Of a stretch of DNA of 64,000 bases, positions 2,531-38,986 are shown in pieces (position 1 is the stretch's first letter; each line of letters opens with the position of its first letter). The stretch spans positions 1 through 64,000 of the IMG/VR virus record IMGVR_UViG_3300014656_000018, one strand, 5' to 3'. The notes under the pieces are model-generated. The model did not search any database, was not told the DNA's origin, and worked only from the letters and a program-made list of their open reading frames with translations. A program made the position numbers and the translations under genes. The stretch comes from a virus.

Positions 2531-3331
2531 TTATGCACTATAACCAGCAGCAATAGCATCCCTCATACTAGCTGGATACCTGTTCCAAATTTCTCTCAAT
2601 CCCTCATCACTCTTTAGCCGCCTCATAACATGTTTCTGCATGGCCTTTGGTATCTTTTTGCCTTCTCCATATACGAGTCGATATTTATCACCCAAAGCTT
2701 TTTCATATATCTGGCTTAGAGCGATCGAATCACCTTGTAGTGCTCTCACTTTTCTCAGAAAAGCGTTGCTGTCTTTAGCACCCGGTCCAGATAAAGTAGT
2801 CAACATGTTATGCTCTTTTGCCAATACTTGAGGAGAGAAATGACCATAGCCAAATAAAACCTCTTTAGGTTTGACAGCTCTTTCCAGACCCTCATGTATA
2901 CCAAATATTGTGCTAAGTGCTTCTCGTGGTTTCTTTTTTAACTCTGCAACCGAACCAAGTGAGCCTCTCCCTCTAGACAAATAAATAGTACCGGGACCAA
3001 ATTTTAAGGTAGTAGCCATATCTTTTTTCATATGGGCAATCAGCTCTCCTTTCGGAAGTGTTGCTCCTGTTCTGATTGCAGCGTCAGCTATTTGAGGAAG
3101 TACCCGCTTTGCGGACCTTATGGTTGGTACTGTTGCAGCACCACCACCAAGGGCTGTATAATCCTTTGCTTTCATTGTCGAAAAATTACCCTCTAATAGT
3201 GCTTTTGATGGTTTCCAACTCTTTAGACTATGAAATTTTACTCCTAACCTTTTAATGGCCCCCTTCAGCTCAGACATAGAAGCAGATATCTTTATGTACT
3301 CATCCACATAAGAGGATAGCGTAGAAATCAT
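2531..3331 (-). CDS. AT-rich tagged protein (SYVDEYIKIS) with an HExxE...H motif; candidate internal head cargo
   Basis: GGAGGAG RBS precedes ATG 3331; N-terminal tag; IHEGLE...GHFSPQVLAKEH; more AT-rich than its flanks. Confidence 0.6.
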   Translation of the reverse strand: MISTLSSYVDEYIKISASMSELKGAIKRLGVKFHSLKSWKPSKALLEGNFSTMKAKDYTALGGGAATVPTIRSAKRVLPQIADAAIRTGATLPKGELIAHMKKDMATTLKFGPGTIYLSRGRGSLGSVAELKKKPREALSTIFGIHEGLERAVKPKEVLFGYGHFSPQVLAKEHNMLTTLSGPGAKDSNAFLRKVRALQGDSIALSQIYEKALGDKYRLVYGEGKKIPKAMQKHVMRRLKSDEGLREIWNRYPASMRDAIAAGYSA

Positions 3332-3358
3332 TAGATACTCCTCCATGAAACCAACCTA

Positions 3359-3389
3359 AATTTACCCCAAAGATAGTATGCTTTGCAAC
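3359..3389 (-). promoter_or_regulatory. Putative sigma70-like late promoter GTTGCAA-N18-TAAATT
   Basis: Same 18-bp spacing as three other leftward promoters; lies just after the capsid terminator. Confidence 0.45.
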
Positions 3390-3416
3390 GGTATTGGCAT
3401 ATATGAAAGAAAGAAA

Positions 3417-3448
3417 GTGGAGGCAGGGCTTTTACACCCTGCCTCCAC
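3417..3448 (-). terminator. Intrinsic terminator after the major capsid gene
   Basis: 12-bp stem GTGGAGGCAGGG/CCCTGCCTCCAC followed by a T-rich tract on the minus strand. Confidence 0.8.
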
Positions 3449-3481
3449 CTCAGATAGCTACGATGGGATTCAACATAGGAA

Positions 3482-4705
3482 TTAGTACTGAGCCACCTGG
3501 GGATAATACAAGCCGGCCTCAACCAGGTTGTTCATAGCACCCAGGCTCTCCTCTGCGGAGATACGCTTGTTGGCCGAGGTAAGACCAACAATAGCCGCAT
3601 CGGAGAAGGTAGGACCTGCACCGGTACGGGCACCGAGCTGGGTAACAGTGGTACCCCGGACGGTAACCGAAGCAGAAAACAGCTCCAGCTTCGCCATGGC
3701 AGCGATGTTACCAAGACCCATACCAATATCTTCCCAAGACTGCCAGGTGATCAGATTGGCAATCTTATCGATATAGAACTTGGTGTTGTTGAGGATATAG
3801 AATCGGCCCAGAAAATTCGGAGCGGTGAATCCATAGATATTGCCTACACGCAGGATATCCACCTTGATGGAGCGAACGAAGCGCTTTCCAAGAAGGATAT
3901 TATACTTGTAGCCATCTACCAGAGTCTCGGACTGTATCTTGTCACCGACATCCTCGATGGTCCACTGCAAGATATCCTCAAAATCCGGCTCGGTCAGGAG
4001 GATGACCTCCATACGCAGCCGTCCATTCCCGGCTCCATTGGCACCACCGGAGAGGATCTTGAAGAGATTGATGAAGTCGGGACGCTGAACGGGGTTTACA
4101 ACCCAGTCATCCAGGGGGTTACCGGCGGCATCCTCGCGGGTACGAGCCAGCTCACCCTTGATGATCTGAGACTCGATAACCTCGGAGTTTGCCAGAGTGC
4201 CGGCGGAGAGACCGGTTACCACGCTGGCATTGGCCCGGAACTGCAGCTCCTGGATAGCCATCTCAACATGGCCCAGGAACTCCCGATCCTCAACCTCCTG
4301 AATGTCCGTCACCGAGTTGTCCTCGATGATCTTGGTGATGGGCATCTCGTAGGCGAGAAGCTCCTGCTCCGTCTTTTCGAACTTCTCCGAGGAGATGGTA
4401 AAGAAAGGGATCTCGTAGCGCTCACCAGAGACATACCGGGCACGGGGTTGACCACGGAAGGTGATAGCCATGGCCTGGCTCTGAGGCTCGATATCCACCA
4501 CCCTCACCAGAGTATCGTGATGAGTGGATCTCTGGAGATCAGCCTTGGTGACCATCTTGGGAGGAATGATCTTCCGGGCAAAAGACACCTCACGGAGCCT
4601 ATCTTGGATATACTCCCCCCCGAACTCAGCAATCTTCTCCTTTCCTTCTGGAGTACCCAGCTTCTGGGAGAAGAGGTCAATCATTGCACGAGCGTTAGCT
4701 GACAT
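3482..4705 (-). CDS. Major capsid protein (HK97 fold)
   Basis: 407 aa; REVSFARKIIPP...DIEP...F.G.P...RYEIPFF.I.S pattern; strongly biased codons; follows protease, scaffold and decoration genes and precedes a terminator. Confidence 0.8.
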   Translation of the reverse strand: MSANARAMIDLFSQKLGTPEGKEKIAEFGGEYIQDRLREVSFARKIIPPKMVTKADLQRSTHHDTLVRVVDIEPQSQAMAITFRGQPRARYVSGERYEIPFFTISSEKFEKTEQELLAYEMPITKIIEDNSVTDIQEVEDREFLGHVEMAIQELQFRANASVVTGLSAGTLANSEVIESQIIKGELARTREDAAGNPLDDWVVNPVQRPDFINLFKILSGGANGAGNGRLRMEVILLTEPDFEDILQWTIEDVGDKIQSETLVDGYKYNILLGKRFVRSIKVDILRVGNIYGFTAPNFLGRFYILNNTKFYIDKIANLITWQSWEDIGMGLGNIAAMAKLELFSASVTVRGTTVTQLGARTGAGPTFSDAAIVGLTSANKRISAEESLGAMNNLVEAGLYYPQVAQY

Positions 4706-4729
4706 ATCTATATACCTCCCTACCCAGAA

Positions 4730-5314
4730 TCAATCAATCGTGTAAGGCGAGCAGGTAATGTAAGCCCGCAGAACTGTTCCGGCTGTAGCAGCTGCCGGAG
4801 GCAGCGTGATATAGCCGACACGCCAGGCACCCGTGCCGAGGCCAGCATCGGTACTGATACAGGGGCGCCGCTCTGCACCATTACCCCAATCATTGGAAGC
4901 GCTGGAAATACCGATGGGGACACCCATGGTCAGCTGTGCCTGATCTCCGAGATCCCACATCTTGAACTCGGCCTCAAAGGCACCGCAGAATAGAATGGTT
5001 GTCTTGCCAATAGCCTGAGTATCATACCGACCTACCTCAGTGCTGACAGGCCAGAGACCACAGGCAAGGATAAGATCACCGGCAACAGCCCCACCACGGA
5101 CGGCCTGATAACCATCCGTAGAGCTGAAGCGGACAAGACGCTGTGCGGTAGTACTGGTGGTATCCAGGGATAGAAACTCCCCATCGCACAGAGTAGGATT
5201 GGCAGCCGTACCGGCATTACCCGCGAGAGTAATACCAGAAACGGGGAAATCACGCTTCACCAGGCCTTGAAACTCAGTGATGAGCCTCATTCCCTGTCGA
5301 AAAGAAAGAGCCAT
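4730..5314 (-). CDS. Putative capsid decoration/cement protein
   Basis: 194 aa, Gly/Ala/Thr-rich; immediately upstream of the capsid gene with the same codon bias. Confidence 0.6.
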   Translation of the reverse strand: MALSFRQGMRLITEFQGLVKRDFPVSGITLAGNAGTAANPTLCDGEFLSLDTTSTTAQRLVRFSSTDGYQAVRGGAVAGDLILACGLWPVSTEVGRYDTQAIGKTTILFCGAFEAEFKMWDLGDQAQLTMGVPIGISSASNDWGNGAERRPCISTDAGLGTGAWRVGYITLPPAAATAGTVLRAYITCSPYTID

Positions 5315-5339
5315 CTTTCAACCCTCCAAAAGCAAATTG

Positions 5340-5705
5340 TCAAGACCCGAGGATATAAGACTCAAGTCGAGTAGATCCATTACCTAACTGATCTTCACTG
5401 ACAGATGCCAGCTTCATGGAGGATACATCCATACGGATAGCCTCCTCCACGACACGAAGGTCACGACCCGGATCATTGAGCAGCTTTGCAACCTTCTCAC
5501 CAAATGGGAGACCTGGGTCAATGCCCTTCTCATCCATCATGGCTACGATGGTTTCGGCATGCTCTCTTCTCTCGTAGCTGGCAACCTTCTCCCTGAGCGT
5601 ATGGACCTCCTCTCTGAGAGACTCCAGAACCCCGGGGATTTCTGCCAGGACCTCACGAATGTCATCAGCACTCAGCTTCTCCATGGTGCTATCCTCCGGG
5701 GTCAT
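5340..5705 (-). CDS. Putative scaffold protein
   Basis: Acidic coiled coil; EKVAS and MKLAS motifs; position upstream of the capsid genes. Confidence 0.5.
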   Translation of the reverse strand: MTPEDSTMEKLSADDIREVLAEIPGVLESLREEVHTLREKVASYERREHAETIVAMMDEKGIDPGLPFGEKVAKLLNDPGRDLRVVEEAIRMDVSSMKLASVSEDQLGNGSTRLESYILGS

Positions 5706-6448
5706 CCTTGCACCCTGCTAGAAACCCGGCAGCGTGCACAAACATTGACTCCATCGCAAGTACAGGGGGAGCCTGCAATCTTGCTGAGAGCCGTACGAAC
5801 CTCTGCCATCTTCACACCTGCCTTGGAGGTGTTCTGCAACTTCTCCTTGAGTACTGGGTCAGAGAAGGCCGGGTGGCTGAGCACCTTGGCCAGATCGCTC
5901 TTCACCAGCTTCTTCGCATCCCCCTTAGTATAATCCTGAGCCTTATCCACTGAGCTTACTAGCCCATATCCACCGGAGGTGGGAGCCTTTGGACCCTCAC
6001 CGCTGGCAGATACTCCGGGAGGACCGGAGGTGGTGGTCTGGGAGATAGAAGGGGGAGAGTCGAGACCGCTTCCAAGCTTCTCAAGAATTGCAGCTTTCAG
6101 CTGGTCTCTGGTAGCTCCAGCCATTTTGGTGGCTGGAGCTTTGCTGGGGATAATAGCCTTTGCAGACTTTACCTTCCCAGCAATGAAGGGAGAGATTTTT
6201 GCTACTCCTACACCATCCAGATGCTCACAGATATAGGAGACAGCGCCAGCCAGCTTCTCAACGTAATCAAGATCTACACCCTGAGCACTGGCAGTCTTGA
6301 TAGATTCATGATCCGAGCAGAAGATACCTGAGTCAATACTGACACCGCAGACAGAGCACTGTCTTTCTGGCTCTGCGGAAGCCGTCTTGACCCGCTGCTC
6401 GGCCTCTCTGATAACCGAGTCAACCATGTCCTGTAGCGGCGTCTTCAT
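5702..6448 (-). CDS. Head-core/scaffold-like protein with many K-x-A motifs and two Cys clusters
   Basis: VKTASA, IKTASA, EKLAG, TKMAG, VKMAE, SKIAG; CSVC...C..H and CTC...CARC. Confidence 0.55.
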   Translation of the reverse strand: MKTPLQDMVDSVIREAEQRVKTASAEPERQCSVCGVSIDSGIFCSDHESIKTASAQGVDLDYVEKLAGAVSYICEHLDGVGVAKISPFIAGKVKSAKAIIPSKAPATKMAGATRDQLKAAILEKLGSGLDSPPSISQTTTSGPPGVSASGEGPKAPTSGGYGLVSSVDKAQDYTKGDAKKLVKSDLAKVLSHPAFSDPVLKEKLQNTSKAGVKMAEVRTALSKIAGSPCTCDGVNVCARCRVSSRVQG

Positions 6449-6450
6449 AG

Positions 6451-6777
6451 CTACCTCATCACTGGAGGTGGTGGCAGCTTGGGAGCTGCCATTGCGTTGG
6501 GAGAAAAGCTCTTTACCGGAGGATTGACCGGAGTAACTCTGCGGGGATTAGGCTTTGCCAATCCGATATTTATCGATGTTCCCGCAGGTTTGGCCGGTAA
6601 TGGCGCTCCAGGAGCTTTAGGAACTCCCATCGGTGAAGGAGTCTCCACAACGGATGACGCCCCCACCGATGGGATTCTAGCGGAAGGACCAATAACACCA
6701 GCAGATGGGACACCTCGGATTGACTGAGCAATCTTTTGCATCTCATCTAAATAAGCAGCTAGTGTTGTTTGGTTCAT
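6451..6777 (-). CDS. Tagged Pro-rich basic protein
   Basis: N-terminal AAYLDEMQKIA followed by a Pro/Ala/Lys-rich disordered segment. Confidence 0.65.
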   Translation of the reverse strand: MNQTTLAAYLDEMQKIAQSIRGVPSAGVIGPSARIPSVGASSVVETPSPMGVPKAPGAPLPAKPAGTSINIGLAKPNPRRVTPVNPPVKSFSPNAMAAPKLPPPPVMR

Positions 6778-6783
6778 ATGTAA

Positions 6784-7608
6784 TTAACTCGTAGCCTTGT
6801 GAACACCATATCCGGCCAAACCAACAGGAGCAGCAATAGCACCACCACCCAGGCCCAAACGTACTCTACGAGAAGCTCTGGAAGCCTCAGCACCAGGAGA
6901 CATACCCTTTAGCTTAGCTGTAAACTTCCTTATCTGATCATTGATACCTGTTAGGTTCCCACCACCAGCTTCTCGTGCCTGATTCTGAAGCTTCAGAAGC
7001 TTGTCTCTAACTTTCTGACGAGCTGCAGGAGTTCCCGTTGCTGCTCTACGAGCAGACCAAGCTTCCAGCTTCTTTCCCCCAGGAACAGCCCCACCTAAAC
7101 GTTCAACACGTCCTATCATTTTCTCTAAAAAACTAGGAGCCTTCTTAGCTGTAGTCATAAGAGCAGTAGATACTCCAGCAATCTTATTCATCTCATCCCA
7201 CTGAGCATGAGCCATCACCCGGCCGAGGAAATCAGCCTCAGCAAACTTGGCTTCGGCCTCCTTGGTCTCCTCTTCATCCTCCCAGTTGGCGGGATCAAGA
7301 GCATACTCAGCCAGCTGCTCGAACTCCTCGTCAGTCAGCTGATCGAGGTCAATATCGTTAACAGCTGCAACCTTCTGAATCATGGAGACCTTCTCCCGAT
7401 CAGAGATGTCAGTGTCAGCACCTTCCTCACCCAGAAGGCCAAGCTCATCAGCCAGAGCAATGACATCCTCATCACTCAGGCTGTCAATGTCGATACTGTC
7501 GTCATCGGCCAGCTTCTCCAGAAGAGCTGCCTGGGCCGACTTCTCCAGATCCTCCTGCGACTGACCGGTACCGTAGAACTCTGCAAGCCACTCGTTCATC
7601 CCGTTCAT
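6784..7608 (-). CDS. Acidic scaffold-like N-half, internal tag, basic Gly-rich C-half
   Basis: EKSA/EKLA/QKVA motifs; AQWDEMNKIAG; C-terminal GLGGGAIAAPVGLAGYG. Confidence 0.6.
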   Translation of the reverse strand: MNGMNEWLAEFYGTGQSQEDLEKSAQAALLEKLADDDSIDIDSLSDEDVIALADELGLLGEEGADTDISDREKVSMIQKVAAVNDIDLDQLTDEEFEQLAEYALDPANWEDEEETKEAEAKFAEADFLGRVMAHAQWDEMNKIAGVSTALMTTAKKAPSFLEKMIGRVERLGGAVPGGKKLEAWSARRAATGTPAARQKVRDKLLKLQNQAREAGGGNLTGINDQIRKFTAKLKGMSPGAEASRASRRVRLGLGGGAIAAPVGLAGYGVHKATS

Positions 7609-7672
7609 GATGTCACTCCTTGAATCAAGTCAACCTTTCTGATGTGGCGGTCACATCGTTGGAGCCTTTCTA

Positions 7673-9430
7673 TCATGTGCTCCTCGTGGCCCGCAATCCA
7701 TGACCTATGGTAGAGCCCAGCATGGCTGCAATATTTGGATGCTCTGCTATGAGCCTTGCAATCATACCTGACTCTTTACCCTCTTTCTCCCGGCCCTTCA
7801 CATGGGCTGAGATAAGATATGCTAGTGGAAGAAGACCCAGCATGGAAAGTAAAAACGTAGCTGAGCGTCCTTCCACAGCAGCAACCTTGCTTGTAGTGTA
7901 AGCATCTTCCATCTTGTATTGGAAGATCTGCTCTTCAATATCTGGAAAGATATAGCAGATATTTTCTGCAGCTACAGGAATAAAGGATGCCAGGCTCTGT
8001 CTGTAGCCATTATACGCAGCAGATATCTTGTCCAGGAGAGGATGAGTAATTTCTTCCGGAGATGATACTGAATCAGGAGAGACTTGTATTCTAATCACTC
8101 TCCTGTGGAGGCAGGGACCGTACAAGCTACGATGCTCCATCTGACCCATGAGAAGATTCTTGATAAGGGGCATGATCCCCTCAAGTGATAGTGGGATAGA
8201 GCTATCTACTTCTTCTACTGGACGGAATGTACCGTGGTTATTATCCAGATCATCTGCGAGGCCAGGCTTTCCCATACGGATAAGAATAATTCTCTGGAAC
8301 TCCTGCGGCTTTAACACGATACCCATTGCTCCGGACGTTGACAATGATCTATCCGGAGAGACAGAGGCCATCTGGTCCAGAGTCCGGGAAGGTAAAGATT
8401 CCTCTCTGGAAGCTAAAGCTCTGATTGCATCCTTGAATCTCTCTATACCGCCATGGGCCTTCATGACAGCCGGAGTTCTCTTCTCCGTATCTGCCTGCTT
8501 GGTCGGAAAAGAGACAGAGGCACACTTCTCCAGATCCGATCTATGGAGCCTATATATCTCAGACGTAGATGGCTTTGATTTTCCGGAAGCAGATGCCAGC
8601 TTCTGGATAGTCTTGGCTATCTTATCTGCTCCGATATAGACGCTGCTGATGTCAAAGAATCTTGGGAAATCATTATGAACACTGACCTGAATGCCATTGG
8701 GTAATATCTGACCGGCACTCTTCATCATATGCTCACAGTAGTCGTTTCTGGTGAGAGAGATACCGGGAATAGGGGATACTCTATGTGCTTCCTTGATTGC
8801 ATCACCGGGAAGCATATGAGGATTTCTCAGAAGAGCATCTCTCATTCTTTTATATGTCTCTTCATTATCCCCACAACATGTAGACCTATCAAAAGGTACC
8901 TTAGTACCCATCGACCAGTCTGGGTGCTCATTTCTATCCAATTTGTCAACAACTTCGTGAGCACCTACAGCAGCTGCCTTCTCTCTATCCACACAAACAA
9001 CAAGCTCGACCCTCTTCATGGGATCATTCCAGACAGCCAGCTTTATCTCACCATAGGATTTATTGGGATCGGTGTTCTGGTGGTGCATATAGGGATAGCC
9101 ATACTTCTCAAAGGTCTTGTATCCCCAATTCCCATCGGTATTTCTGAGAGAGAAGTAGGCTCTTTTGATTATAGGATTGTCTGAAGCAGCCCACGTATTG
9201 TATTCATCAAACCGGTCGTTGTTAATATTTGCCCCATAGTACTCTGCTGCACCCATAGCATTCAGAAGGACAAATATCTTTCCTTTCTCCGGCTGAAGAC
9301 TGGAAGCATATCTCTGAATCTCCGGGTGAACAGCAGAAGCTGTCTTTATGATTCTTCCCGGCTGGATAGCTATCACCAGGGGATTACCCTTAGCATCTAT
9401 TCCGGGACAGCTAAATGTCTTCTCAATCAT
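7673..9430 (-). CDS. Prohead maturation protease (HK97/assemblin-like serine protease) with a long C-terminal extension
   Basis: NNDRF...HHQN...WSMG...FFDISSVYIGAD has the His / SxG / (E/D)xSxV layout of prohead proteases; lies in the head cluster. Confidence 0.65.
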   Translation of the reverse strand: MIEKTFSCPGIDAKGNPLVIAIQPGRIIKTASAVHPEIQRYASSLQPEKGKIFVLLNAMGAAEYYGANINNDRFDEYNTWAASDNPIIKRAYFSLRNTDGNWGYKTFEKYGYPYMHHQNTDPNKSYGEIKLAVWNDPMKRVELVVCVDREKAAAVGAHEVVDKLDRNEHPDWSMGTKVPFDRSTCCGDNEETYKRMRDALLRNPHMLPGDAIKEAHRVSPIPGISLTRNDYCEHMMKSAGQILPNGIQVSVHNDFPRFFDISSVYIGADKIAKTIQKLASASGKSKPSTSEIYRLHRSDLEKCASVSFPTKQADTEKRTPAVMKAHGGIERFKDAIRALASREESLPSRTLDQMASVSPDRSLSTSGAMGIVLKPQEFQRIILIRMGKPGLADDLDNNHGTFRPVEEVDSSIPLSLEGIMPLIKNLLMGQMEHRSLYGPCLHRRVIRIQVSPDSVSSPEEITHPLLDKISAAYNGYRQSLASFIPVAAENICYIFPDIEEQIFQYKMEDAYTTSKVAAVEGRSATFLLSMLGLLPLAYLISAHVKGREKEGKESGMIARLIAEHPNIAAMLGSTIGHGLRATRST

Positions 9431-10364
9431 TGTCTATTTTGAAAGAAGGGAGTGCCGGAAACTTCTCACTTCTTGTGCTAAGCTGCGCTTTTCTGGCGGC
9501 AAGCAGCTCCCCTACAGTCTTATGGGCCAGAAAATCATGCTGGGAAGTACCCTTCACAAATGAGCTAGCTACCAGGGGATCCTTTGCCATCTCCGGATTG
9601 AATCTGAAAAGAGTTTCAAAATGCTTACGTACTCTGACTGGAGTAGCTGTATGCATCCTCTTCAGCTCTCTATCTTCCTCTAACATACTTTTGAAAGCCT
9701 TCTCCTTACCAGTTCTGGATAAAGCCTCCAGGCCATACTGTGTTGCTATACCCGTACCGGCCAGAGCAGCACCACCGGCAACTGTCAAACCAAGCTTCTT
9801 TGCTAGAGACCAGGGAAGCTTTTCTTTTGAGGCTTCTGGGGTAGTTACTTTCCTGTACTTATTCTGAGCTTCAGCCATCTCGGTACGAGCTTTGAGGTTT
9901 GCCTGCCTGCTCTCTAGCCTGGTTCTATATATATCCCTGGCGGTAGGCTTGACACCGAAGATCTGTCTTCCCTTCTGCTTCTCAATCCTACCGAGCCGTT
10001 CCATCTTCTCCAGCTCTTTTCGGGAGGTAGCAAGCTCAGCTTTGGGCCTTGCCAAGGCTCCCCTAACCTGATCCCTTATGTTTGCCTGGTTTGCTCTGAC
10101 AGCTCTCAGCCTGTCACCAATTACTTGAAGCTTCTTTCCTCTGATACCTCTGGCTGTAAAACTTTTGAAAGCCTTGCTGAAGGTAGAAAGCTCTTTGCCC
10201 GCTTCTACAGCCTGTCTGCGAAGTCCGGAAGGCAGACTACCCACAGCAGGACTGATAGCACTGCGAGCCAGATTCAGACTCTCTGCAATTGGAAGCATGA
10301 AGGAAGCTCTGGAAGCTTCCTTCCCCAAAGCAGCCAGCTTGATAAGATATACAAGATCTGTCAT
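9423..10364 (-). CDS. Basic protein with a Gly-rich hydrophobic segment; candidate internal/ejection protein
   Basis: N-terminal YLIKLAALGKEAS; Arg/Lys-rich; LGLTVAGGAALAGTGIATQYG. Confidence 0.55.
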   Translation of the reverse strand: MTDLVYLIKLAALGKEASRASFMLPIAESLNLARSAISPAVGSLPSGLRRQAVEAGKELSTFSKAFKSFTARGIRGKKLQVIGDRLRAVRANQANIRDQVRGALARPKAELATSRKELEKMERLGRIEKQKGRQIFGVKPTARDIYRTRLESRQANLKARTEMAEAQNKYRKVTTPEASKEKLPWSLAKKLGLTVAGGAALAGTGIATQYGLEALSRTGKEKAFKSMLEEDRELKRMHTATPVRVRKHFETLFRFNPEMAKDPLVASSFVKGTSQHDFLAHKTVGELLAARKAQLSTRSEKFPALPSFKIDND

Positions 10365-10933
10365 CAGTAAGACCCCTGCTGATAGTATACCTGCTCCGCC
10401 GGTGCTGCACCCTGGACATTTCTGCCATAATCTCCGGAAAATTGAGAGACACCGAGCGGAACGCCCAAACCAACTCCGAAAGCTATGCCCGGATGCTTTT
10501 GACCAAAACCGACCAGACCACCCCTTCTCATCTTTGCTGTGTGATAGATAGTCTCTCCAGTTGGTCCTATGGATCTAGTGAAGTGCTGTTTGGGGAAAAC
10601 TCCCTCAGACTTCAGCTTCTCCCACGTCTCCTTGGGGACAGTTTTCCAGTGCTCCTTGGTCCACTTGGTGGGATCAGGGCCTCCAACAGGTCGGAGGGTG
10701 GAAAATCTCGGTTCCTTGCCCATCTTCTTTGCTTGTGCTTCCAGCGCCTCAGCATAGGGACCTGACACCTGCTTATTACCCACCAGAAGCCTTTTTGCCC
10801 CACCGAGAATCTTCCCCAGTCCTCCTACGATAGTATTACCTACTGCAGAGCCTCCTGCAGGGGGAAGGCCATAGGCAAGCTTGTAGAGATATTGCTGACG
10901 AGCCAGAATTCTATCATAGTCCTGTCGGGTCAT
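10364..10933 (-). CDS. Basic Gly-rich protein; candidate internal/ejection protein
   Basis: N-terminal YLYKLAYG; VGGLGKILGG and GIAFGVGLGVPLGV segments. Confidence 0.55.
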   Translation of the reverse strand: MTRQDYDRILARQQYLYKLAYGLPPAGGSAVGNTIVGGLGKILGGAKRLLVGNKQVSGPYAEALEAQAKKMGKEPRFSTLRPVGGPDPTKWTKEHWKTVPKETWEKLKSEGVFPKQHFTRSIGPTGETIYHTAKMRRGGLVGFGQKHPGIAFGVGLGVPLGVSQFSGDYGRNVQGAAPAEQVYYQQGSY

Positions 10934-11814
10934 GATCTCACTCCCAGAGCTTTCTCTACCTTCTGAAGATTTTCCCCGGCAATTTTTACCGTCTCCTCCA
11001 TCACTCTCCTATAATGCTGTATCTCCTGTAAAGCACAGAAGGAAGATACGATAGGGTGTGTAGGATCGGGACATCTTCTTCCGGCCGTCTTATCAAAACC
11101 CTCAGCGATGCCTGCACGGTCTATGATACCCTTACACAGTAGGTGAGCAGACAGCATGGTAGCTACCTTGCTGAAGAAACCTGTATCCTCGACAAAAGGA
11201 GACAGTGCCTGAAGCACATCATGAAAGCTGCCATCTCCCATGAGAACAGCCTGCTCTGCCTTGTCCTTCAACTCTGTAGCTACCTGCTCCTCTGCAACAG
11301 AAAGAGAAGACATCTTAGAAAGAGCGTGCTCCTGCAGACCCTTCAACCTTTCCCGAGTCCTGTTCAGCTCTGCATTGGGATCTTCATGGGGGTATGGTTC
11401 TCTGCTCGATGCCGTTTTGGTATTGGCACCGAAGATTTCTACTATAATATCCTCTCCACGGCTGATAGGACTATAGGTCTTCCTCTCAGCAGAAGGCATA
11501 GGACGGACATGGGATGGTACTTTGACGCCTACGATCTCATCAAAGTCCGCTAAAGGAAAATTGACATTCTTATCAGCCTGCTTCTCGAACAGGCTCTTGA
11601 ATGTCTCCCTATTTGCGACCTCACACACACGATGAATCTGGTCACGGTTCAATGGCTCGTCCTGAATGAGGTCCTTTATAGCGGAGGACAGCTTTACACC
11701 ATCCTCAACATAGCGGACAGATGCCCTCTTCCCCAGGAAGGCAAGACGATCTGCACTGGCTGGGACCTCTTTGGAGAATAGAATATAGCTACTTAGCTTA
11801 TCCATTGACCTCAA
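10930..11814 (-). CDS. Head-cluster protein with K-x-A motifs
   Basis: EKQAD, TKTASS, SKVAT, DKTAG; first gene of the head operon; start could be ATG 11805. Confidence 0.6.
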   Translation of the reverse strand: MRSMDKLSSYILFSKEVPASADRLAFLGKRASVRYVEDGVKLSSAIKDLIQDEPLNRDQIHRVCEVANRETFKSLFEKQADKNVNFPLADFDEIVGVKVPSHVRPMPSAERKTYSPISRGEDIIVEIFGANTKTASSREPYPHEDPNAELNRTRERLKGLQEHALSKMSSLSVAEEQVATELKDKAEQAVLMGDGSFHDVLQALSPFVEDTGFFSKVATMLSAHLLCKGIIDRAGIAEGFDKTAGRRCPDPTHPIVSSFCALQEIQHYRRVMEETVKIAGENLQKVEKALGVRS

Positions 11815-11829
11815 CCATCCTGCTGAAAG

Positions 11830-11860
11830 AAGCTATGACATTCTCTGTCAAGATGTCAAC
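11830..11860 (-). promoter_or_regulatory. Putative sigma70-like late promoter GTTGACA-N18-TAGCTT
   Basis: Consensus -35 at the head of the head-gene operon. Confidence 0.55.
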
Positions 11861-11920
11861 CCACTTATAGTCCTACATAAAGCTATCACATGTATTGATT
11901 ATAGAAAAGCTATTACAGGT

Positions 11921-11950
11921 GAAAAAATGAGCTGCTTTTGTGGCATAAGA
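11921..11950 (+). promoter_or_regulatory. Putative phage early promoter (A-tract...GGCATAAGA)
   Basis: Motif recurs upstream of plus-strand units at 28850, 29096 and 38943. Confidence 0.5.
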
Positions 11951-12013
11951 ACAATGAAGGAATTAATCACAAAGAGAACCAGCACCCATTGCTGGTTCTC
12001 AAGGAGAAAAGAA

Positions 12014-12448
12014 ATGGAAGCAGCAACCCCCCCCACGATGACGTTTGAACAGCTGCAGAAGCTGTTCGGGGGGGGCCTTCAGGCCCCCCCCGCAGCCGCT
12101 CCTGCTCCCGCCGCAGCCGCAGCCGCTCCTGCTCCCGCCGCAGCCGCTCCCACGACTGTGACCGTCCGGATCTCCGAGGACCAGCTCCAGGAGCTGGCCT
12201 CGGGGTGGGCCCACGAGGCCCGCCGGAATGCACCCCTCGGGGTGCAGTGCTTCCGCAAGTACTGCGACGCCGTGGACAAGGCGTCGCCGGAGAGTGCCTT
12301 CGGGCGGATTTTCGTCCACGTCCTCGTCGCCGGGGTACTCACCCTGGTGATCCTGGAAGTCGTGGGAGCCGTCGCCGGCGTCCCCGGCATCCGGCCCTCC
12401 TCAATCGGGATCGACCGGTCCTCGCCGGTCGGTCTCCTGCCCCAGTAG
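12014..12448 (+). CDS. GC-rich early membrane protein (Ala-Pro linker, C-terminal TM helix)
   Basis: AAGGAG RBS at 12001-12006, ATG 12014; TM segment VHVLVAGVLTLVILEVVGAVAGV; almost all codons end in G/C. Confidence 0.7.
   Translation: MEAATPPTMTFEQLQKLFGGGLQAPPAAAPAPAAAAAAPAPAAAAPTTVTVRISEDQLQELASGWAHEARRNAPLGVQCFRKYCDAVDKASPESAFGRIFVHVLVAGVLTLVILEVVGAVAGVPGIRPSSIGIDRSSPVGLLPQ
12091..12147 (+). repeat. 27-bp perfect tandem duplication
   Basis: CGCAGCCGCTCCTGCTCCCGCCGCAGC at 12091-12117 and 12118-12144. Confidence 0.9.
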
Positions 12449-12477
12449 CCCCGCTCCGGGGCACAAACAAAAAAGAG

Positions 12478-12498
12478 AGAGAGGCTTCGGCCTCTTTT
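12478..12498 (+). terminator. Intrinsic terminator with a C(UUCG)G loop
   Basis: AGAGGC-TTCG-GCCTCT-TTT. Confidence 0.75.
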
Positions 12499-12545
12499 AA
12501 CTAAAAAGAAAAGAAGGAAGGAGATTTTTTACGGGAGAAGAAGCT

Positions 12546-14117
12546 ATGTGCCATGGTAAAACTGTATCATTTTTTTCCGGAATTCGTCCTACTCAACAAT
12601 GGATCAGCATGGTCTGTGAAATACTCCAGGCAGAGTGTAAGCAGACCTTCTGGGGATCCAAAGTATTGCCCTCTCCATTACCTCGATCTGACTATTTAGT
12701 AGTAGTTACTGATACTACAAAGCATAAGATATGGAATCAGGTAAAATCCAGATCTAACCGGGACCAGCAAGTATTGGCTCTGTCCAATAAATCAGATAGG
12801 ACCAAAAAGCAGCTGGCGGCTAAGGGATTTGATCTCAGGGTAGAGGCGAAGGAGGAGATGTTGGCAAAATTTACTGCCTGGCCAGGGGTGGTACCCTTTG
12901 TAGAGAAGCTGGTACTAAGACACCCCGGCGTAACGTTAGACGACCTGATCCGTCTGAGACACTGTGAGATGGATACCCCCATCAGGGGATCCATGTCGTC
13001 AGACTCCATTGCAACAGCAAGGAGAGTGATACGAAGAAGGATGGACATGATTCAGGACCCATATGGGCCCGGGGTACATCTGGATGTGCTGAAAAAGACA
13101 GCAGAGGAGCATCTGAAGGGTCTAGATGCTCCTCCCAGAGATCCTCTGATAGAAAGGAGGATAGAGTTAATTGACCGGACGGTGACCCTTCTACATGAGG
13201 CGGGGAGAGTTCCCACTCCCTTTTACTTTGGTCCCCGGGCTCTGAAAGATATCGAGGGGTTGCCTGAAGGGTGGAACGGGATTGCTGATTCCCGAGAAAT
13301 TGCCGTACTGACTCGGGACATTCCCCGAGATAAGGAGATGACTCTTCAGGAGTATCAAAAATTATTCCGTGCTGCTCTGAATGGTGCGACACCGGAGCCT
13401 GCACCAAAGATCGAGGTGGTGGCTTCAAACCCTATCACCATCACCTGGAGCAATGCCTTGGATTTCTGGCCGGAGATGTTGAAGGCCCTGCCAAATCTCT
13501 CTCTCAGAGATATGGCCTGGCTACGGCAGCAGCCAGAGGTATGGGCAGCCAGAATGGGGGATAGAGGTGTCTATGCCTTCTGTTGCATAGGGGCAGGTAG
13601 TTGGATGGGGAGAAGGTTAGAGGATGAGAAAATCCTGGACGTGGCTTATAGAATGCTCTCATCAGAAGATTACATAGAACCACCCAGGATTACCAAGAAC
13701 TTGCGTATGATAGGAAAGATAGCTGCAAATGCTGAAAAGCACGCAATCTATCTTCCAAGCTATAACACTCTGCCAGCCTCCTTCATCTCTCGAATCTTCG
13801 AGCTGGGTATTGACCTGGATAGCAGAGCATATGAGGAGGTAAGAGATCTTACAGCAGGGTCTATCACTGAGGACAGACCCTGGGATGATACTGAAGAAAC
13901 AGTGATCAGCATGCTTCTGGCGGATCTAATTTCAGCTGAGGCTTCCCCTCAGAAGGAGATAGAGATGGAGGAAGAGAAGAAGATGGAAGACAAGATGAGT
14001 AAAATCCTCCGGGATCTCCTTCAAGAGATGGGGACCTCCAACATCCTGGAGATCAAGATCTCCAGCGATGGGACGGTCCAGACCAAGAGGGTGGTGGAGA
14101 CCACCCTGAAGCTGTAG
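12546..14117 (+). CDS. Hypothetical early protein
   Basis: 523-aa ORF with a purine-rich RBS; no motif recognised. Confidence 0.7.
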   Translation: MCHGKTVSFFSGIRPTQQWISMVCEILQAECKQTFWGSKVLPSPLPRSDYLVVVTDTTKHKIWNQVKSRSNRDQQVLALSNKSDRTKKQLAAKGFDLRVEAKEEMLAKFTAWPGVVPFVEKLVLRHPGVTLDDLIRLRHCEMDTPIRGSMSSDSIATARRVIRRRMDMIQDPYGPGVHLDVLKKTAEEHLKGLDAPPRDPLIERRIELIDRTVTLLHEAGRVPTPFYFGPRALKDIEGLPEGWNGIADSREIAVLTRDIPRDKEMTLQEYQKLFRAALNGATPEPAPKIEVVASNPITITWSNALDFWPEMLKALPNLSLRDMAWLRQQPEVWAARMGDRGVYAFCCIGAGSWMGRRLEDEKILDVAYRMLSSEDYIEPPRITKNLRMIGKIAANAEKHAIYLPSYNTLPASFISRIFELGIDLDSRAYEEVRDLTAGSITEDRPWDDTEETVISMLLADLISAEASPQKEIEMEEEKKMEDKMSKILRDLLQEMGTSNILEIKISSDGTVQTKRVVETTLKL

Positions 14118-14136
14118 TAACTGAAAAGGGTGGGAG

Positions 14137-14167
14137 AATAGGAGGGCTTTTTGCCCTCCTATTTTTT
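14137..14167. terminator. Terminator between convergent genes
   Basis: AATAGGAGGGC-TTTTT-GCCCTCCTATT-TTTT. Confidence 0.8.
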
Positions 14168-15863
14168 ACCTGGTATTAGTGGTAGCTCCCGGAGCAAGCA
14201 CATCAGGTCTGGGGTGCTGTATCATGCTGGCAAAGAATAAAAGAGTCAGAGAGTGTAGAGTATCATCTGTTGACCCCAGAGCATGATCGTATGAGGTCAT
14301 TCTCTGCCGCTCATTGTATTCGGAGTAGACACTCAGCAGGTCAGTAGCGAAAGGATCCTGAAATACCTTCCAGAGAGGAAACCGTATCTGCTGCCTCTTA
14401 ATTGTATTGAATACAGCACTAAGCATTGATGAGCGGTTTCCCTTGAATCTGTGCTGAGCAGGATCCCATTCACATATCTTGCCCACAGTACCCACGTACT
14501 GGTACTTTACTATGAGGCGAGGGCCGAACTTCCGTATCAGGGTATCATTTCTTTCCAGACCACCACCATAGTCACAGCCGACGAGCTTTACATTGAATCT
14601 GGAGATAAGCTCACTGATGCGTCGCATCTCGTACTCCAGCTCTGACTCCATTCCCATGAATCTCTGAGCATAGAATACTGTGAATTTATCTCTCCAGTAT
14701 GTTCCTATAGTTATGACAGTATAGCTCTTCTCCCCTCCACCCCAATCAATACCCGCATAAGCGGCTCCGGCTGATCTACACCTCTCGGCCCAGACATTGA
14801 GTGCTGATTCACTCATGTCCAGCATTTTTACCTCTTCCTCATCATTATCATTTCCACAACAGACTCTTATTTCCTCCCTGGTAAGGGGACGGATGCCGGA
14901 ATCATACGCCAGCCCGAGAACCTCATTGAAGAATACCTGACGGGAGAAGGTCTTACTTTTGTGTATGATGTCTCCCCATCCCTCCTCACTCTTGTACACC
15001 CAGGGTACCATCAGCTGAGAGATGTGATATCCCTCTGTAGGATTGGGAACGTTGGGATTGGGGTTCATTGCCACCCAGTGAGCGTCTGGATGGTCCGGAT
15101 ATATAGGGGCGCCACATTTATCACATATAGGTCCTTTCAACCCTATACTTGCCTCACCGAGAACATTCCAGTAAGGAAGGAGCTTCGTACCTCCCAGTAA
15201 CTGATGCCTAAAGCAGGGTAAAACCCACTCGCACTGATTCGTGTCTCTCTGCCAGCTCTGCTCCAGGCTGTTGTCCAAGCTCTTGGGGGTTCCTGAGTAA
15301 GAAAGTATCTTCCAATCAGAGTGAGAGGCACACTCCTCAATAACAGGTACATGGCTAAGCAATATATCTTGAAATTCATCTATCAGGATCATATCAGCCC
15401 TGATCCCACGCACACGATCCGGGTTCTGAAAAGCATATCTAAGAGTTATTTTTGACCAATTCTGAAATTGTTTGGATAGGACGTTTTGAGACAGCTTAGA
15501 ATTCGTATATGCAGCAATCATGGGACAGGTTTCAATGGGCTCTCTCAACCTATCATTAGAAAACTCTCTGGTTTGGGCATTAGTAGGGGATACGTAAAGG
15601 GTACGGAATCTTGGAACGAGGCAGCTATATGCTAAAGCTTTATTACCTAACGTGGTGCTTTTCTCTATTTGCCGTCCACACTTCAGTAATATTTTTCTAC
15701 ATTCTGTATCATATAATCTTCTTAGATATGGTCTTTCTGCAAAAGAGAAAGTAGCCAACGAAGTTCCTGCGTTCACAAGTACTGCTGTCTCTACAAATTC
15801 AGACGCTAGAATCTCAATCTTCCTTTTACCATTCCATCTTTCTTTCTGGGGTACTATAATCAT
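14166..15863 (-). CDS. terL: Terminase large subunit (GpA-like)
   Basis: Walker A variant KCGRQIEKST; Walker B ILIDEFQD; GTP motif; nuclease GIDWGG...DDTLHS. Confidence 0.9.
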   Translation of the reverse strand: MIIVPQKERWNGKRKIEILASEFVETAVLVNAGTSLATFSFAERPYLRRLYDTECRKILLKCGRQIEKSTTLGNKALAYSCLVPRFRTLYVSPTNAQTREFSNDRLREPIETCPMIAAYTNSKLSQNVLSKQFQNWSKITLRYAFQNPDRVRGIRADMILIDEFQDILLSHVPVIEECASHSDWKILSYSGTPKSLDNSLEQSWQRDTNQCEWVLPCFRHQLLGGTKLLPYWNVLGEASIGLKGPICDKCGAPIYPDHPDAHWVAMNPNPNVPNPTEGYHISQLMVPWVYKSEEGWGDIIHKSKTFSRQVFFNEVLGLAYDSGIRPLTREEIRVCCGNDNDEEEVKMLDMSESALNVWAERCRSAGAAYAGIDWGGGEKSYTVITIGTYWRDKFTVFYAQRFMGMESELEYEMRRISELISRFNVKLVGCDYGGGLERNDTLIRKFGPRLIVKYQYVGTVGKICEWDPAQHRFKGNRSSMLSAVFNTIKRQQIRFPLWKVFQDPFATDLLSVYSEYNERQRMTSYDHALGSTDDTLHSLTLLFFASMIQHPRPDVLAPGATTNTR

Positions 15864-15866
15864 GGG

Positions 15867-16169
15867 ATGAGTATAGAGAATAAAACATGGTTAGATAAAG
15901 CAATATCTCTACTCTCCGAAGCAACCATGGGACAGGTTATGGGCTGGAGAGATATTCCAGATACCTTTGATCCTTTAAGGGGTAAAGCAGAGATTATTCT
16001 ATCCCAGCCTATTCTCCCGACTGAGCTTAAATTCATTCGAACAATACTGAAAGGGGTAGCTAAAGATAATGGGTATGATGTTGTAGGGTTAGTGGGAGCT
16101 AAAAGATTGAGATTTACCTTCTTCAAGAGGACACCCGATAAGAATGCGATACCTGGTATTCCCTCTTAG
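15867..16169 (+). CDS. Hypothetical protein
   Basis: 100-aa ORF with globular composition, divergent from the terminase; strand choice uncertain. Confidence 0.45.
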   Translation: MSIENKTWLDKAISLLSEATMGQVMGWRDIPDTFDPLRGKAEIILSQPILPTELKFIRTILKGVAKDNGYDVVGLVGAKRLRFTFFKRTPDKNAIPGIPS

Positions 16170-16269
16170 CAATTTCCAACGCCGATAAAAGATTACTCCT
16201 AAGCTTTTTTTGTACTGTAGAGGATATCTTTAGCATCTCATCCAGATAGCGATAAAAACTAATCCCCAT
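16123..16269 (-). CDS. 48-aa tagged micro-ORF (not in ORF track)
   Basis: MGISFYRYLDEMLKISSTVQKKLRSNLLSALEIAKREYQVSHSYRVSS; ATG overlaps the end of the SNF2 gene; near-exact copy of the YLDEMQKIA tag. Confidence 0.6.
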   Translation of the reverse strand: MGISFYRYLDEMLKISSTVQKKLRSNLLSALEIAKREYQVSHSYRVSS

Positions 16270-17965
16270 ATGAATAACGCCATTCTGGGCCTGTAGCAGT
16301 CCATACTCTCCAACGTCTCAGATACTTCTTGGGGCGAAAACCTGGAGGTGGTTTATACTCCGGACGAGTGCCTGTTTGGAGAGCTGTCCTGAACTGCTCA
16401 TTGAGAACATCCTTCCCGGCTGCTACATCATAGATCCACTGATCTGTAGTGTGTTTCTTCCCGCCACCGAAAAGAGAGCGGAGAAATCCTACCTTCGGCA
16501 TGACAGATTTGTATCTCTTGATAATAACCACTCTGTTTTCTTGTGGGCGGTCTTCCAAACCCTTTGCCCGCACACCTCTGGCCTCTGCCTGCTGAATAAC
16601 CTCCGGATTGAAGTGGCCATCCACCATCTGAACCATGGTAGAATTCTTCAGATCCAAACCTTCTGCTCCTGCTTCGGAGACAAGAAGAACCCTTAGCTTA
16701 CCTTCCAGATAATCAGATACACCTGCCTGCCTGGTCTCCTCCTGTACCTTATTACCACCGACCTCTCTTCCTTTACCTATGAAGACACCAAAGGAGATAC
16801 CTCTCTTTTTCAAACCGGCAGCCAGGACATCGATACCTCCATTGACCAGGTTGGAGTACATGACGACCTGACCATCAGGGGTTGTCTGGAGATGCTCCTG
16901 AGCATCATCCAGAACCTTCTTTATCTTGGGTGTTCTATCTGCAGCCTCTTCAAGGGAAACCGTACCCATGGTAGCAATGGAGTTGGATACCTGTCTGGCT
17001 CTGATTATCTTCCCAAAAACAGTCTGAGCCTCCCTCTTATCCATGGGGATATTATGTTCAATCTTGTACCGGGTGATGAACGGAAGCTGTCCCATGGCGT
17101 AGTTGTATAGGTCCTTCTGCTCATCAGACATCTCTACCAGAACTTCAGACACCTGCTTCTTTGGAAATAATGTAGGATTTGTTCTTTCCAGATCTTCATG
17201 ACTAACAAAATTTACCAGCTTACCAAATCTTTGCTGAATTTCTGATGGACGAATTATAACTGTGATATCCTTCTTACCACCCAGGAAACCCTCTCGGGAT
17301 CCTATAATAGACATATAACGCTTCTCAAACTCTGTTTGGCTGCCAGCAATAGGATATCCGGCAGATAGGGTCATCAACGCTATAATATCCGAGGGTTTGT
17401 TACTGACTACAGATCCTGTCAGACCAATAAAATTGGTAGCCATAGCTCTGGCTAACATCAACGCTTTGAAGTTTACACCTTTTGTATCTCGGGCCTTATG
17501 TACCTCATCTACTATGAGAGTATCTGCCCCGGAAGCCTCCATATATTTATGGGGGGCCTGACGAAATAGCTCATAGCCTACAACAGAGTATGGGATGGTC
17601 TTATCTGCAGTTTGGAAATCTACATGAGAGCCATCAGACACCTCTTGTTTATTCCCAAACACCTGAACAGCATCGTCAGTAAACTTCTTGACACCCTTCT
17701 CCGCAAAGTTGGTACGGAGGCCAGTGGGAACAACTACAAGCGCATTATGAGCAGCGCCAAGCTTTCTTGCGGACTCAAAGCAGAATAAAGCACTAGCAGT
17801 CTTTCCGGAGCCGGTGCTGTGAGCAAGGATGATTTCACCATTATTATCTACGAACTGCTTTATTGCTTCCTGCTGGTGAGGAAGGGGAGAGTATTTCTCC
17901 CTGAGAGCTGCAGATTTTATACTGTAGTCAAATAATTCCTCATGTAGCTCTTCCGGGGATATCAT
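16259..17965 (-). CDS. SNF2/SWI2-family ATPase in the late operon
   Basis: HSTGSGKT, DEVH, LTGS, AGAEGLDL, QQAEARGVR; probable start ATG 17965 (MISPEELHEELFDYSIKSAA). Confidence 0.85.
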   Translation of the reverse strand: MISPEELHEELFDYSIKSAALREKYSPLPHQQEAIKQFVDNNGEIILAHSTGSGKTASALFCFESARKLGAAHNALVVVPTGLRTNFAEKGVKKFTDDAVQVFGNKQEVSDGSHVDFQTADKTIPYSVVGYELFRQAPHKYMEASGADTLIVDEVHKARDTKGVNFKALMLARAMATNFIGLTGSVVSNKPSDIIALMTLSAGYPIAGSQTEFEKRYMSIIGSREGFLGGKKDITVIIRPSEIQQRFGKLVNFVSHEDLERTNPTLFPKKQVSEVLVEMSDEQKDLYNYAMGQLPFITRYKIEHNIPMDKREAQTVFGKIIRARQVSNSIATMGTVSLEEAADRTPKIKKVLDDAQEHLQTTPDGQVVMYSNLVNGGIDVLAAGLKKRGISFGVFIGKGREVGGNKVQEETRQAGVSDYLEGKLRVLLVSEAGAEGLDLKNSTMVQMVDGHFNPEVIQQAEARGVRAKGLEDRPQENRVVIIKRYKSVMPKVGFLRSLFGGGKKHTTDQWIYDVAAGKDVLNEQFRTALQTGTRPEYKPPPGFRPKKYLRRWRVWTATGPEWRYSYGD

Positions 17966-17969
17966 CCAT

Positions 17970-18338
17970 CTACTTCTTTTTCTTGCTGGACATGAGATGG
18001 GCCATAGCCAATCCGACAAGTAAGGTAGATGCGGCTCCTGTAGTACCCCTGGCAAGACCCTTAGCCATACTTCTACCCATCCCCCTCCCTACAAGAGGAT
18101 CCATAATCTTATTCTCCAAACCTCCCTTGAAGACCCCCGTAGCAAAACCAAGTGCTGCAAGGGGAAGAAGTGCCTTGAAGTTACTCTTGAGGGATTTATC
18201 CTCTGCGATCTTACAGAACTCATCAATGTAGGAGGACCAGTCAGGAGAGCAAAGCTTCACCTTATCCTTGGTGTATTTTATCATATCAGCCTTCTTTCTC
18301 ATCTTGGCTGCAGCTCTATCCTCAATCCTCATACTCAT
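17970..18338 (-). CDS. Tagged protein with Gly-zipper-like hydrophobic helices
   Basis: SSYIDEFCKIAE, then LLPLAALGFATGVFKGG...GAASTLLVGLAMA and a KKKK tail. Confidence 0.65.
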   Translation of the reverse strand: MSMRIEDRAAAKMRKKADMIKYTKDKVKLCSPDWSSYIDEFCKIAEDKSLKSNFKALLPLAALGFATGVFKGGLENKIMDPLVGRGMGRSMAKGLARGTTGAASTLLVGLAMAHLMSSKKKK

Positions 18339-28774: not shown

Positions 28775-28780
28775 GATGTC

Positions 28781-28811
28781 AAAATACGATAGTTCAGGCC
28801 AGCAGGTCAAC
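28781..28811 (-). promoter_or_regulatory. Putative sigma70-like promoter GTTGACC-N18-TATTTT, possibly giving a leaderless RNAP mRNA
   Basis: The -10 hexamer ends 6 nt before ATG 28774; no SD sequence. Confidence 0.5.
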
Positions 28812-29716: not shown

Positions 29717-29985
29717 GCAGCCCGGTTCTCCAAAATGGGCACAATCTACCAAGGTGTGCCTTATGTGGAGAGCCCTTTGAGCCAGATAATGAAGATGAGA
29801 TAATTCTTGTAATTCATCCAATGTTACTGGAGACCAGCAAGAAGTCTGGGAGAGTAAGATTGGTTGATTATGAGTTCAATGTACAAAGAAACGGTCTGGA
29901 CGGTTTGGGGAAGTTCTATTGGCATTATGAATGTGCGGTAGAACAGTTACTGGACCCATCTGTAATAGGACACTTCTATGACTAG
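29677..29985 (+). CDS. Small Zn-finger protein
   Basis: CALC...WHYEC treble-clef-like pattern. Confidence 0.55.
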   Translation: MSSASDDFAHLPISSPVLQNGHNLPRCALCGEPFEPDNEDEIILVIHPMLLETSKKSGRVRLVDYEFNVQRNGLDGLGKFYWHYECAVEQLLDPSVIGHFYD

Positions 29986-38842: not shown

Positions 38843-38884
38843 AGGTTCCCACTCTCCGCAACCAATCAGTTGCCTTTGGTTTGG

Positions 38885-38915
38885 ATGATATGATGCCACA
38901 CCAATCAATGTCAAC
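38885..38915 (-). promoter_or_regulatory. Putative sigma70-like late promoter GTTGACA-N18-TATCAT
   Basis: Near-consensus -35 and -10 at the head of the operon. Confidence 0.65.
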
Positions 38916-38920
38916 AAGTA

Positions 38921-38948: not shown

Positions 38949-38986
38949 AAGCTGTAGTGATATAACACCTATACAGGAGTTTTTTT

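Follow-up and report, generated by a model that had tools for sequence, protein, structure and literature searches.

A short peptide motif recurs near the heads of late proteins encoded by a viral contig in IMG/VR (record IMGVR_UViG_3300014656_000018), and what follows it differs from one protein to the next. What would a single portable tag be doing on proteins that are otherwise unrelated? The window examined here is the first 64 kb of this 98-kb contig, whose completeness is put by CheckV at roughly half. Genes from 482 to 38968 lie throughout on the minus strand and are the virion genes; the plus strand from 38987 to 55342 carries the replication genes. A first-pass annotation had described the tag as [YW]xDE-hydrophobic-xKI[AS], named five clear copies and three weaker ones, and proposed an undescribed system that addresses exchangeable payloads to the head. 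We propose that the tag is a cleavable capsid-targeting propeptide analogous to the capsid-targeting sequence (CTS) of phage T4, with a K-x-A specificity replacing x-x-Glu, and we judge this to be probable by a narrow balance.

A six-frame regular-expression scan of the window finds four matches to the strict motif and five to its DE-x-x-KI[AS] core. All five core matches are on the minus (virion-gene) strand and in the coding frames of the open reading frames (ORFs) named by the first-pass annotation; the five clear copies are thereby confirmed, the start at 3331 being Met6 of gene 2531-3346. Tags were scored with two matrices. Matrix 1 has 14 columns, was built from 83 distinct tags of related loci only, and was used with a threshold of 12 bits; matrix 2 derives from a single payload family, whose N-termini were aligned with the row for this genome omitted and no regular-expression filter applied. 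Two further copies, the second added by matrix 2, lie beyond the window on the same contig.

3284..3310, minus strand: tag YVDEYIKIS, residues 13-21 of the product of gene 2531-3346 (8-16 if Met6 at 3331 is the start); 17.8 bits in matrix 1 and 15.5 bits in matrix 2
6727..6753, minus strand: tag YLDEMQKIA, residues 9-17 of the Pro-rich 108-aa protein of gene 6451-6777; the best match, 29.8 bits in matrix 1
7177..7203, minus strand: internal tag QWDEMNKIA, residues 136-144 of the acidic scaffold-like protein of gene 6784-7608; 15.8 bits in matrix 1
16222..16248, minus strand: tag YLDEMLKIS, residues 8-16 of the 48-aa ORF 16123-16269; 12.6 bits in matrix 1 and 10.2 bits in matrix 2
18204..18230, minus strand: tag YIDEFCKIA, gene 17970-18338; 25.9 bits in matrix 1
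Gene 75388-76038, beyond the window: tag AYIDEMGKIA
Gene 78636-79301, beyond the window: tag AYCVEMEKISK, at residue 9

The Met6 start of gene 2531-3346 is also chosen by an independent gene call (P0001), relatives hold syntenic tagged genes of about 100 aa that match the position of gene 6451-6777, and the internal tag of the scaffold-like protein is seen again in 11 orthologues. The case for ORF 16123-16269 as a genuine gene is based mainly on its tag. The longest ORF of gene 17970-18338 puts the tag at residue 37, which is 19-25 residues past internal Met codons, and the payload behind it has two Gly-rich hydrophobic segments.

Six sites on the 98-kb contig exceed 12 bits in matrix 1, namely AYIDEMGKIA and the five copies of the first-pass annotation, where 200 shuffles lead one to expect 0.16. 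Matrix 2 gives nine matches above 9 bits where 1.08 are expected. Among replication-module proteins none exceeds 12 bits in matrix 1, the top scores being 10.6 and 9.4 bits, both internal, so that the motif is not as common there, or in shuffles, as among the virion genes. Matrix scans of this contig, of the related complete genomes G001 and G003 and of the related loci place the matches in virion-strand genes, at N-termini or within the scaffold-like protein, as the first-pass annotation had anticipated. A literature search turned up no paper with the tag strings themselves (FDELEKI, DELEKIA and others).

Relatives were collected through the major capsid protein, whose gene lies beside that of the first tagged protein:

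3482-4705, minus strand: major capsid protein, with a weak PHROG major head protein match

IMG/VR holds about 200 relatives of this protein at 56-60% identity, several of them on complete contigs of 185-199 kb. Among cultured phages the same protein has only remote relatives, at 26-29% identity, in three Vibrio phages and in Salmonella phage Arash. The tagged family consists of uncultivated phages of about 190 kb, known from genomes alone. We surveyed 80 capsid-centred loci, adding G000 and G001 for ORF counts. A relaxed form of the motif occurs 86 times on the gene strand of these loci and once on the opposite strand. In 107 of the 129 distinct tagged ORFs (all loci, G000 and G001) the tag starts no more than 12 residues from an ATG, and we estimate that a Met would fall within 12 residues of a random site about a quarter of the time. 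G001 (193 kb, complete) has 11 tag matches and G003 (186 kb, complete with terminal repeats) has four, in both cases only on the virion strand and within blocks of virion genes.

The family consensus is Met, 2-8 residues, then [A/S/G]-[F/Y]-x-D-E-[L/M]-x-K-I-[A/G/S]. A scan of all IMG/VR for the exact string FDELEKIA returned 38 matches, with about one expected by chance on our rough figure; about 30 of the 38 have the form Met, 3-10 residues, [AGS]-[FL], then FDELEKIA, each at the beginning of a small ORF, and the contigs that bear them reach about 200 kb. Most copies in the present genome are of a Y..DE-M flavour, and F.DEL is found elsewhere. At two variable positions tags are more alike within than between genomes (permutation p = 0.002 and 0.008), a pattern that fits a single common receptor and that gene conversion could also produce.

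What the tag precedes is far from uniform. The first-pass annotation had remarked that each payload differs from the next, and this holds on a wider scale: the payloads fall into about 50 unrelated BLAST groups, singletons for the most part, and in otherwise syntenic genomes the tagged genes vary in number, place and payload. Payloads are 45-390 residues long, mostly with isoelectric points of 9.5-12, and rich in Gly, Ala and Pro; some are Gly-rich and hydrophobic (gene 17970-18338 and a cluster of 21 members).

The largest payload that stands out clearly is encoded by the gene beside the capsid gene:

2531-3346, minus strand: tagged payload gene, with H146, E150 and H164 invariant and E147 nearly so

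Its product belongs to a family of at least 364 clusters at 50% identity (E<=0.001). The tag scores above 12 bits in 74 of 153 proteins of this family, and in 65 of the 74 it lies within the first 15 residues; the remaining members show progressively less of it, down to K-x-A-[AV]-[ST]-V alone. An AlphaFold2 (AF2) model of the product has a mean predicted local distance difference test score (pLDDT) of 87.4 and a predicted template modelling score of 0.86. The model sets the tag apart as a helix of its own (residues 3-14), predicted with a lower pLDDT than the core and with a short break after it, at K-I-S. Searches of the PDB with Foldseek, of BFVD and across VIA gave no clear structural relative, and there is no Pfam match. 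The longest structural alignments, with dipeptidyl peptidase III (Z 4.8) and oligoendopeptidase F (Z 4.2), are within the range of noise. The invariant H146, E150 and H164 with the near-invariant E147 suggest a metal site, and the HExxH motif is absent from the product; the label of metalloprotease-like, used in the first-pass annotation, is a guess for this payload. Longer proteins, of 500-1250 aa, contain the C-terminal domain as well, and in two of these it is joined by InPase (PF18823) or DUF5661, an arrangement that recalls the polyvalent proteins of phages.

Two tagged frames in related loci may be mentioned here. One, in locus L124 (IMGVR_UViG_3300017963_000311), consists of SFFDELEKIA and about 240 aa with a canonical HELGH soon after the tag, and is a possible tagged zinc peptidase. 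The other, in locus L089 (G004 near 75013), is long and carries SFLDELSKIA at its C-terminal end, 13 residues ahead of the stop codon; this copy is a C-terminal propeptide, or else the gene is frameshifted.

The tag ends in K-I-[A/G/S], and a triplet of the same shape, K-x-A, is over-represented in the proteins of the head. For K-x-A-[SAG], the 12 head-module proteins yield 22 occurrences where 5.7 are expected, an excess of about fourfold (z 6.9); the other proteins of the virion strand between 14 and 39 kb yield 19 where 7.0 are expected (z 4.6). Counts are 11 against 11.4 expected in tail and other proteins, and nine against 4.6 in replication proteins; the reversed motif, used as a control, is flat in every protein set. 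Several positions are kept between orthologues, including F-I-K-[QT]-A (37781-38968), E-K-L-A-[GS] (5702-6448) and E-K-[ST]-A in the scaffold, and one lies in the capsid protein:

4628..4639, minus strand: E-K-I-A, residues 23-26 of the capsid protein, a candidate maturation site

This last is present in nearly all relatives (about 60) and aligns with LVKEA|G of the Arash capsid protein. K-[QSE]-A-[SAG] is frequent in the head proteins of Arash (L099, 130789-171568): it occurs at the N-terminus of the capsid protein and close to those of gp223 and gp222, the latter being the protease homologue. By analogy with the I/L-x-E of T4 and the A-x-E of SPN3US, Lys would be P3 and Ala, Ser or Gly would be P1.

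A candidate for the enzyme is encoded directly upstream of the scaffold-like gene, by an ORF with homologues in 51 loci:

7673-9430, minus strand: protease precursor, 585 aa, with K-x-A at residues 29-31, 270-272, 278-280, 302-304 and 515-517
8624..9379, minus strand: predicted prohead protease domain of T4 gp21 / herpesvirus assemblin fold, residues ~18-269 of ORF 7673-9430

The sequence of the 585-aa ORF has no meaningful match among PDB chains. An AF2 model built from 22 homologues has a moderate overall pLDDT of 63, and on re-alignment with VIA its residues 18-269 superpose on T4 gp21 (5jbl_B) with Z 8.6, 141 of 164 residues being aligned at a root mean square deviation of 3.2 A. The best unrelated structure after it has Z 5.7, six herpesvirus proteases have Z 3.7-5.0, and Foldseek alone gives E 0.15 for T4 gp21. 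H116, H117 and S173 are invariant in the 22 homologues; hhalign sets S173 on the catalytic S140 of T4 and pairs an N-x-D-P after the His pair with the same motif after T4 H85. The gp21 fold predicted for the N-terminal domain is well supported, and H116, H117 and S173 are probably the catalytic residues. Conserved K-x-A sites are found on both sides of the domain, in or beside linkers of low pLDDT; T4 gp21 (PMC9026906) and SPN3US gp245 (PMC10052503) are likewise trimmed.

As we envisage the process, the tag would form a short N-terminal amphipathic helix by which every carrier binds the same partner in the assembling prohead; the scaffold core and the protease precursor are examples of what that partner might be. 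The gp21-like serine protease, the N-terminal domain of ORF 7673-9430, would then trim the helix after the K-x-A triplet, and the freed payloads would remain in the head beside the DNA and probably be ejected into the host. Retention and ejection are suggested by the basic, DNA-friendly or membrane-active make-up of the payloads and by the contents of Arash virions, in which RNA polymerase subunits, sigma, helicase and ligases (RNA ligases among them) are found, the separate beta and beta' subunits being among the most abundant proteins (PMC10585845).

Several observations weigh against the propeptide reading. Packaging and cleavage in the tagged family are read from genes alone, and hhalign of the protease profile with T4 gp21 is not significant (probability 0.2%). 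Tag copy number ranges from four to 11 per complete genome, and in G001 the copy in the scaffold-like protein is degenerate (AYVQELNQIE), with D-E and K lost. Conservation in the 2531-3346 family continues past K-I-A (A/V-S/T-V-x-x-L), which would be unusual if everything up to the Ala were discarded. Arash has K-x-A sites yet no long tag, so that the short code predates the long one. Coverage of some Arash proteins with N-terminal K-x-A is 100%, which does not support complete removal, although cleavage sites are not reported for Arash virion proteins and coverage figures cannot decide processing (PMC10585845). The largest likely passenger, moreover, is without a tag, so the tag would not be the sole route into the head:

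22619-28810, minus strand: fused beta/beta' RNA polymerase, 2063 aa, with beta motifs followed by beta' motifs in a single ORF

An N-terminal tag in this polymerase was considered and rejected, since the one K-x-A near its N-terminus, in K-M-A-G, is not conserved and has R-L-S-G as its orthologous counterpart. In G001 the corresponding polymerase has 2391 aa.

The continuum within the 2531-3346 family, which links the complete tag with K-x-A-[AV]-[ST]-V alone, together with the identity of the terminal triplet with that enriched inside head proteins and the short, mutually dissimilar N-terminal K-x-A leaders of other virion proteins, would also be expected if the tag were only the best recognition sequence of the protease, with carriers entering the head by means of their own mature parts and removal of the tag activating or releasing them. 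K and A would then suffice. On unrelated payloads, however, strong conservation extends to F/Y, D, E and L/M, as far as seven residues upstream. It is also unlikely that each of about 50 unrelated, fast-evolving payloads of low complexity would have a head-binding determinant of its own. We regard this explanation as unlikely, but as the chief alternative and one to be taken seriously.

The conservation beyond K-I-A noted above, and the helix that the AF2 model holds beside the fold of the 2531-3346 product, can be read instead as signs of an uncleaved docking helix, a permanent module that binds a hub (scaffold, portal, chaperone or the inner surface of the capsid) and in which K-I-A is part of the interface. 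Bacterial microcompartments offer a precedent, as their cargo is addressed by short N-terminal amphipathic helices that are not cleaved. Against such a helix, its terminal K-x-[A/G/S] matches the motif that is over-represented in head proteins and flanks the protease domain, and the genome encodes a gp21-type protease; we think it improbable, and more so than the cleavage-only explanation.

The Gly-rich hydrophobic segments of several payloads (17970-18338 and the 21-member cluster) would suit a leader for the host membrane, one that directs small proteins of basic or Gly-zipper type there for membrane-bound assembly or for lysis, without involvement of the capsid; many payloads, however, are soluble, Pro-rich or acidic, the acidic scaffold-like protein has the motif internally, and the tagged genes lie among head genes, near protease, scaffold and capsid, all of which makes such a role very improbable. 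That the tags share no function at all, and merely descend from a single N-terminus duplicated many times over or from an element acting at the DNA level, can be set aside as barely credible: GATGAG is unchanged in every copy in this genome, but the tag DNA differs at synonymous positions, which led us to reject a DNA-level repeat as the source and points to repetition and selection at the level of the peptide, and the motif is kept across the 364 clusters of one payload family and about 50 unrelated payloads, with strongly non-random strand and position.

The propeptide reading can be extended to a stronger form, in which any protein bearing the ten-residue helix would enter the prohead and be freed by a gp21-like protease that has switched from Glu to Ala at P1, as in assemblin, giving a programmable loading code for the whole uncultivated family of ~190-kb phages. 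All that these phages eject could then be listed from the sequences of hundreds of metagenomic genomes: basic peptides that coat DNA, Gly-zipper proteins active on membranes, and the unclassified enzyme-like domain (about 250 aa, with a putative metal site) that polyvalent proteins also contain. This stronger form has a real chance of being right, though we would sooner doubt it than rely on it.

How far is such a system already known? The T4 CTS is 10 residues long, targets its carriers and is cleaved from them, and relatives of T4 have a CTS-like leader on internal proteins that are themselves variable (PMC9026906). The tag resembles it in several respects: both are N-terminal amphipathic leaders of about 10 residues on unrelated, mostly small and basic proteins (IPI-III and Alt in T4, with gp21 as the protease), both end in the P3-x-P1 motif of a protease (putatively so here), in both a protease of predicted or known gp21 fold adjoins scaffold and capsid genes, and in both the payloads vary between related phages (PMC9026906). 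The differences are also clear. The T4 CTS, MKTYQEFIAE, has no sequence similarity to the tag; T4 has Glu at P1 and Ile or Leu at P3, whereas here the putative P1 is Ala, Ser or Gly, the putative P3 is Lys, and Glu is not found at the terminal position of the tag. Unlike T4, the present phages have their protease as the N-terminal domain of a 585-aa precursor, and 4-11 tagged genes per genome spread through the virion modules.

The phiKZ/SPN3US group are also large phages that package many proteins, RNA polymerase included. In SPN3US N-terminal propeptides are removed by the gp21-like gp245 at a three-residue motif with a preference for Ser at P1' (PMC10052503). The motif there is A-x-E, as against K-x-A-[SAG] here, and the propeptides are mostly long (111-254 residues) rather than one common short tag. 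The sites of herpesvirus assemblin have the consensus (V/L)-x-A|S and are cut after Ala and before Ser. Assemblin thus has Ala at P1, as is putatively the case here, and the herpesvirus proteases are among the structures with which the protease model aligns; the sites in herpesviruses belong to the scaffold/protease precursor rather than to a series of cargo proteins, and the likeness in specificity is probably convergent. In encapsulins and microcompartments a short portable peptide takes unrelated cargo into a shell, which in encapsulins has the HK97 fold. These peptides are uncleaved, have other sequences, are usually C-terminal in encapsulins, and work without a protease or DNA.

The proposal of an undescribed addressing system stands in part. 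All that it led one to expect of the sequences was found: matches confined to the virion strand, far above shuffles and with none over 12 bits in the replication module; unrelated payloads that change between related genomes; a gp21-like protease beside the scaffold gene; and an excess of K-x-A-[SAG] in head proteins. The kind of system is one already known from the T4 CTS and the propeptides of phiKZ/SPN3US (PMC9026906, PMC10052503).

If the propeptide reading is correct, the packaged and probably injected proteins of a large environmental group of jumbo-size phages would be predictable from sequence, which today needs virion proteomics of cultured phages. K-x-A would be a third specificity of the gp21 family, beside I/L-x-E (T4) and A-x-E (phiKZ/SPN3US). 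The tag would be a short candidate for loading foreign proteins into capsids, a use that the T4 CTS already serves, and the variable payloads would be a natural place to seek early anti-defence or host-takeover proteins.

The three weaker versions of the motif proposed by the first-pass annotation do not belong with the long tag, as both matrices score them below its range:

9423-10364, minus strand: gene with the short N-terminal K-x-A leader YLIKLAA; below 8 bits in matrix 1 and below 7 bits in matrix 2
10364-10933, minus strand: gene with YLYKLAY at residues 15-21; below 8 bits in matrix 1 and below 7 bits in matrix 2
16259-17965, minus strand: SNF2-family ATPase (Pfam SNF2-rel_dom, ResIII, Helicase_C) with FDYSIKSAA at residues 12-20 from Met 17965; likewise below 8 and 7 bits

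They are instead short N-terminal K-x-A leaders, possibly so in the case of the ATPase. The G001 orthologue of 9423-10364 begins with ..EEFLKTAG and so retains an N-terminal K-x-A; an orthologue of the SNF2-family ATPase was not found in G001. A 733-aa virion-strand protein (G000 80361-82562; L112:361-2562, minus strand), with LigD 3'-phosphoesterase and ATP-dependent ligase domains, has A-E-M-S-K-V-A-G at residues 35-42.

Searches of the head-module proteins against Pfam and PHROGs gave almost no matches, only the weak PHROG major head protein match and the terminase and SNF2 domains. The remaining landmarks of the virion genes are as follows:

14166-15863, minus strand: large terminase, by domain match
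29982-31910, minus strand: portal, by our reading of the ORF

In G001 five core genes (loci L100-L110) are 1.6 to 3 times longer than their counterparts here and match them only at the ends or in parts:

135353-138295 of G001: terminase
114560-120415 of G001: portal
141237-145256 of G001: protease
96051-99089 of G001: DNA polymerase
101317-104178 of G001: helicase

Their greater length and partial matching suggest inteins or other in-frame insertions.

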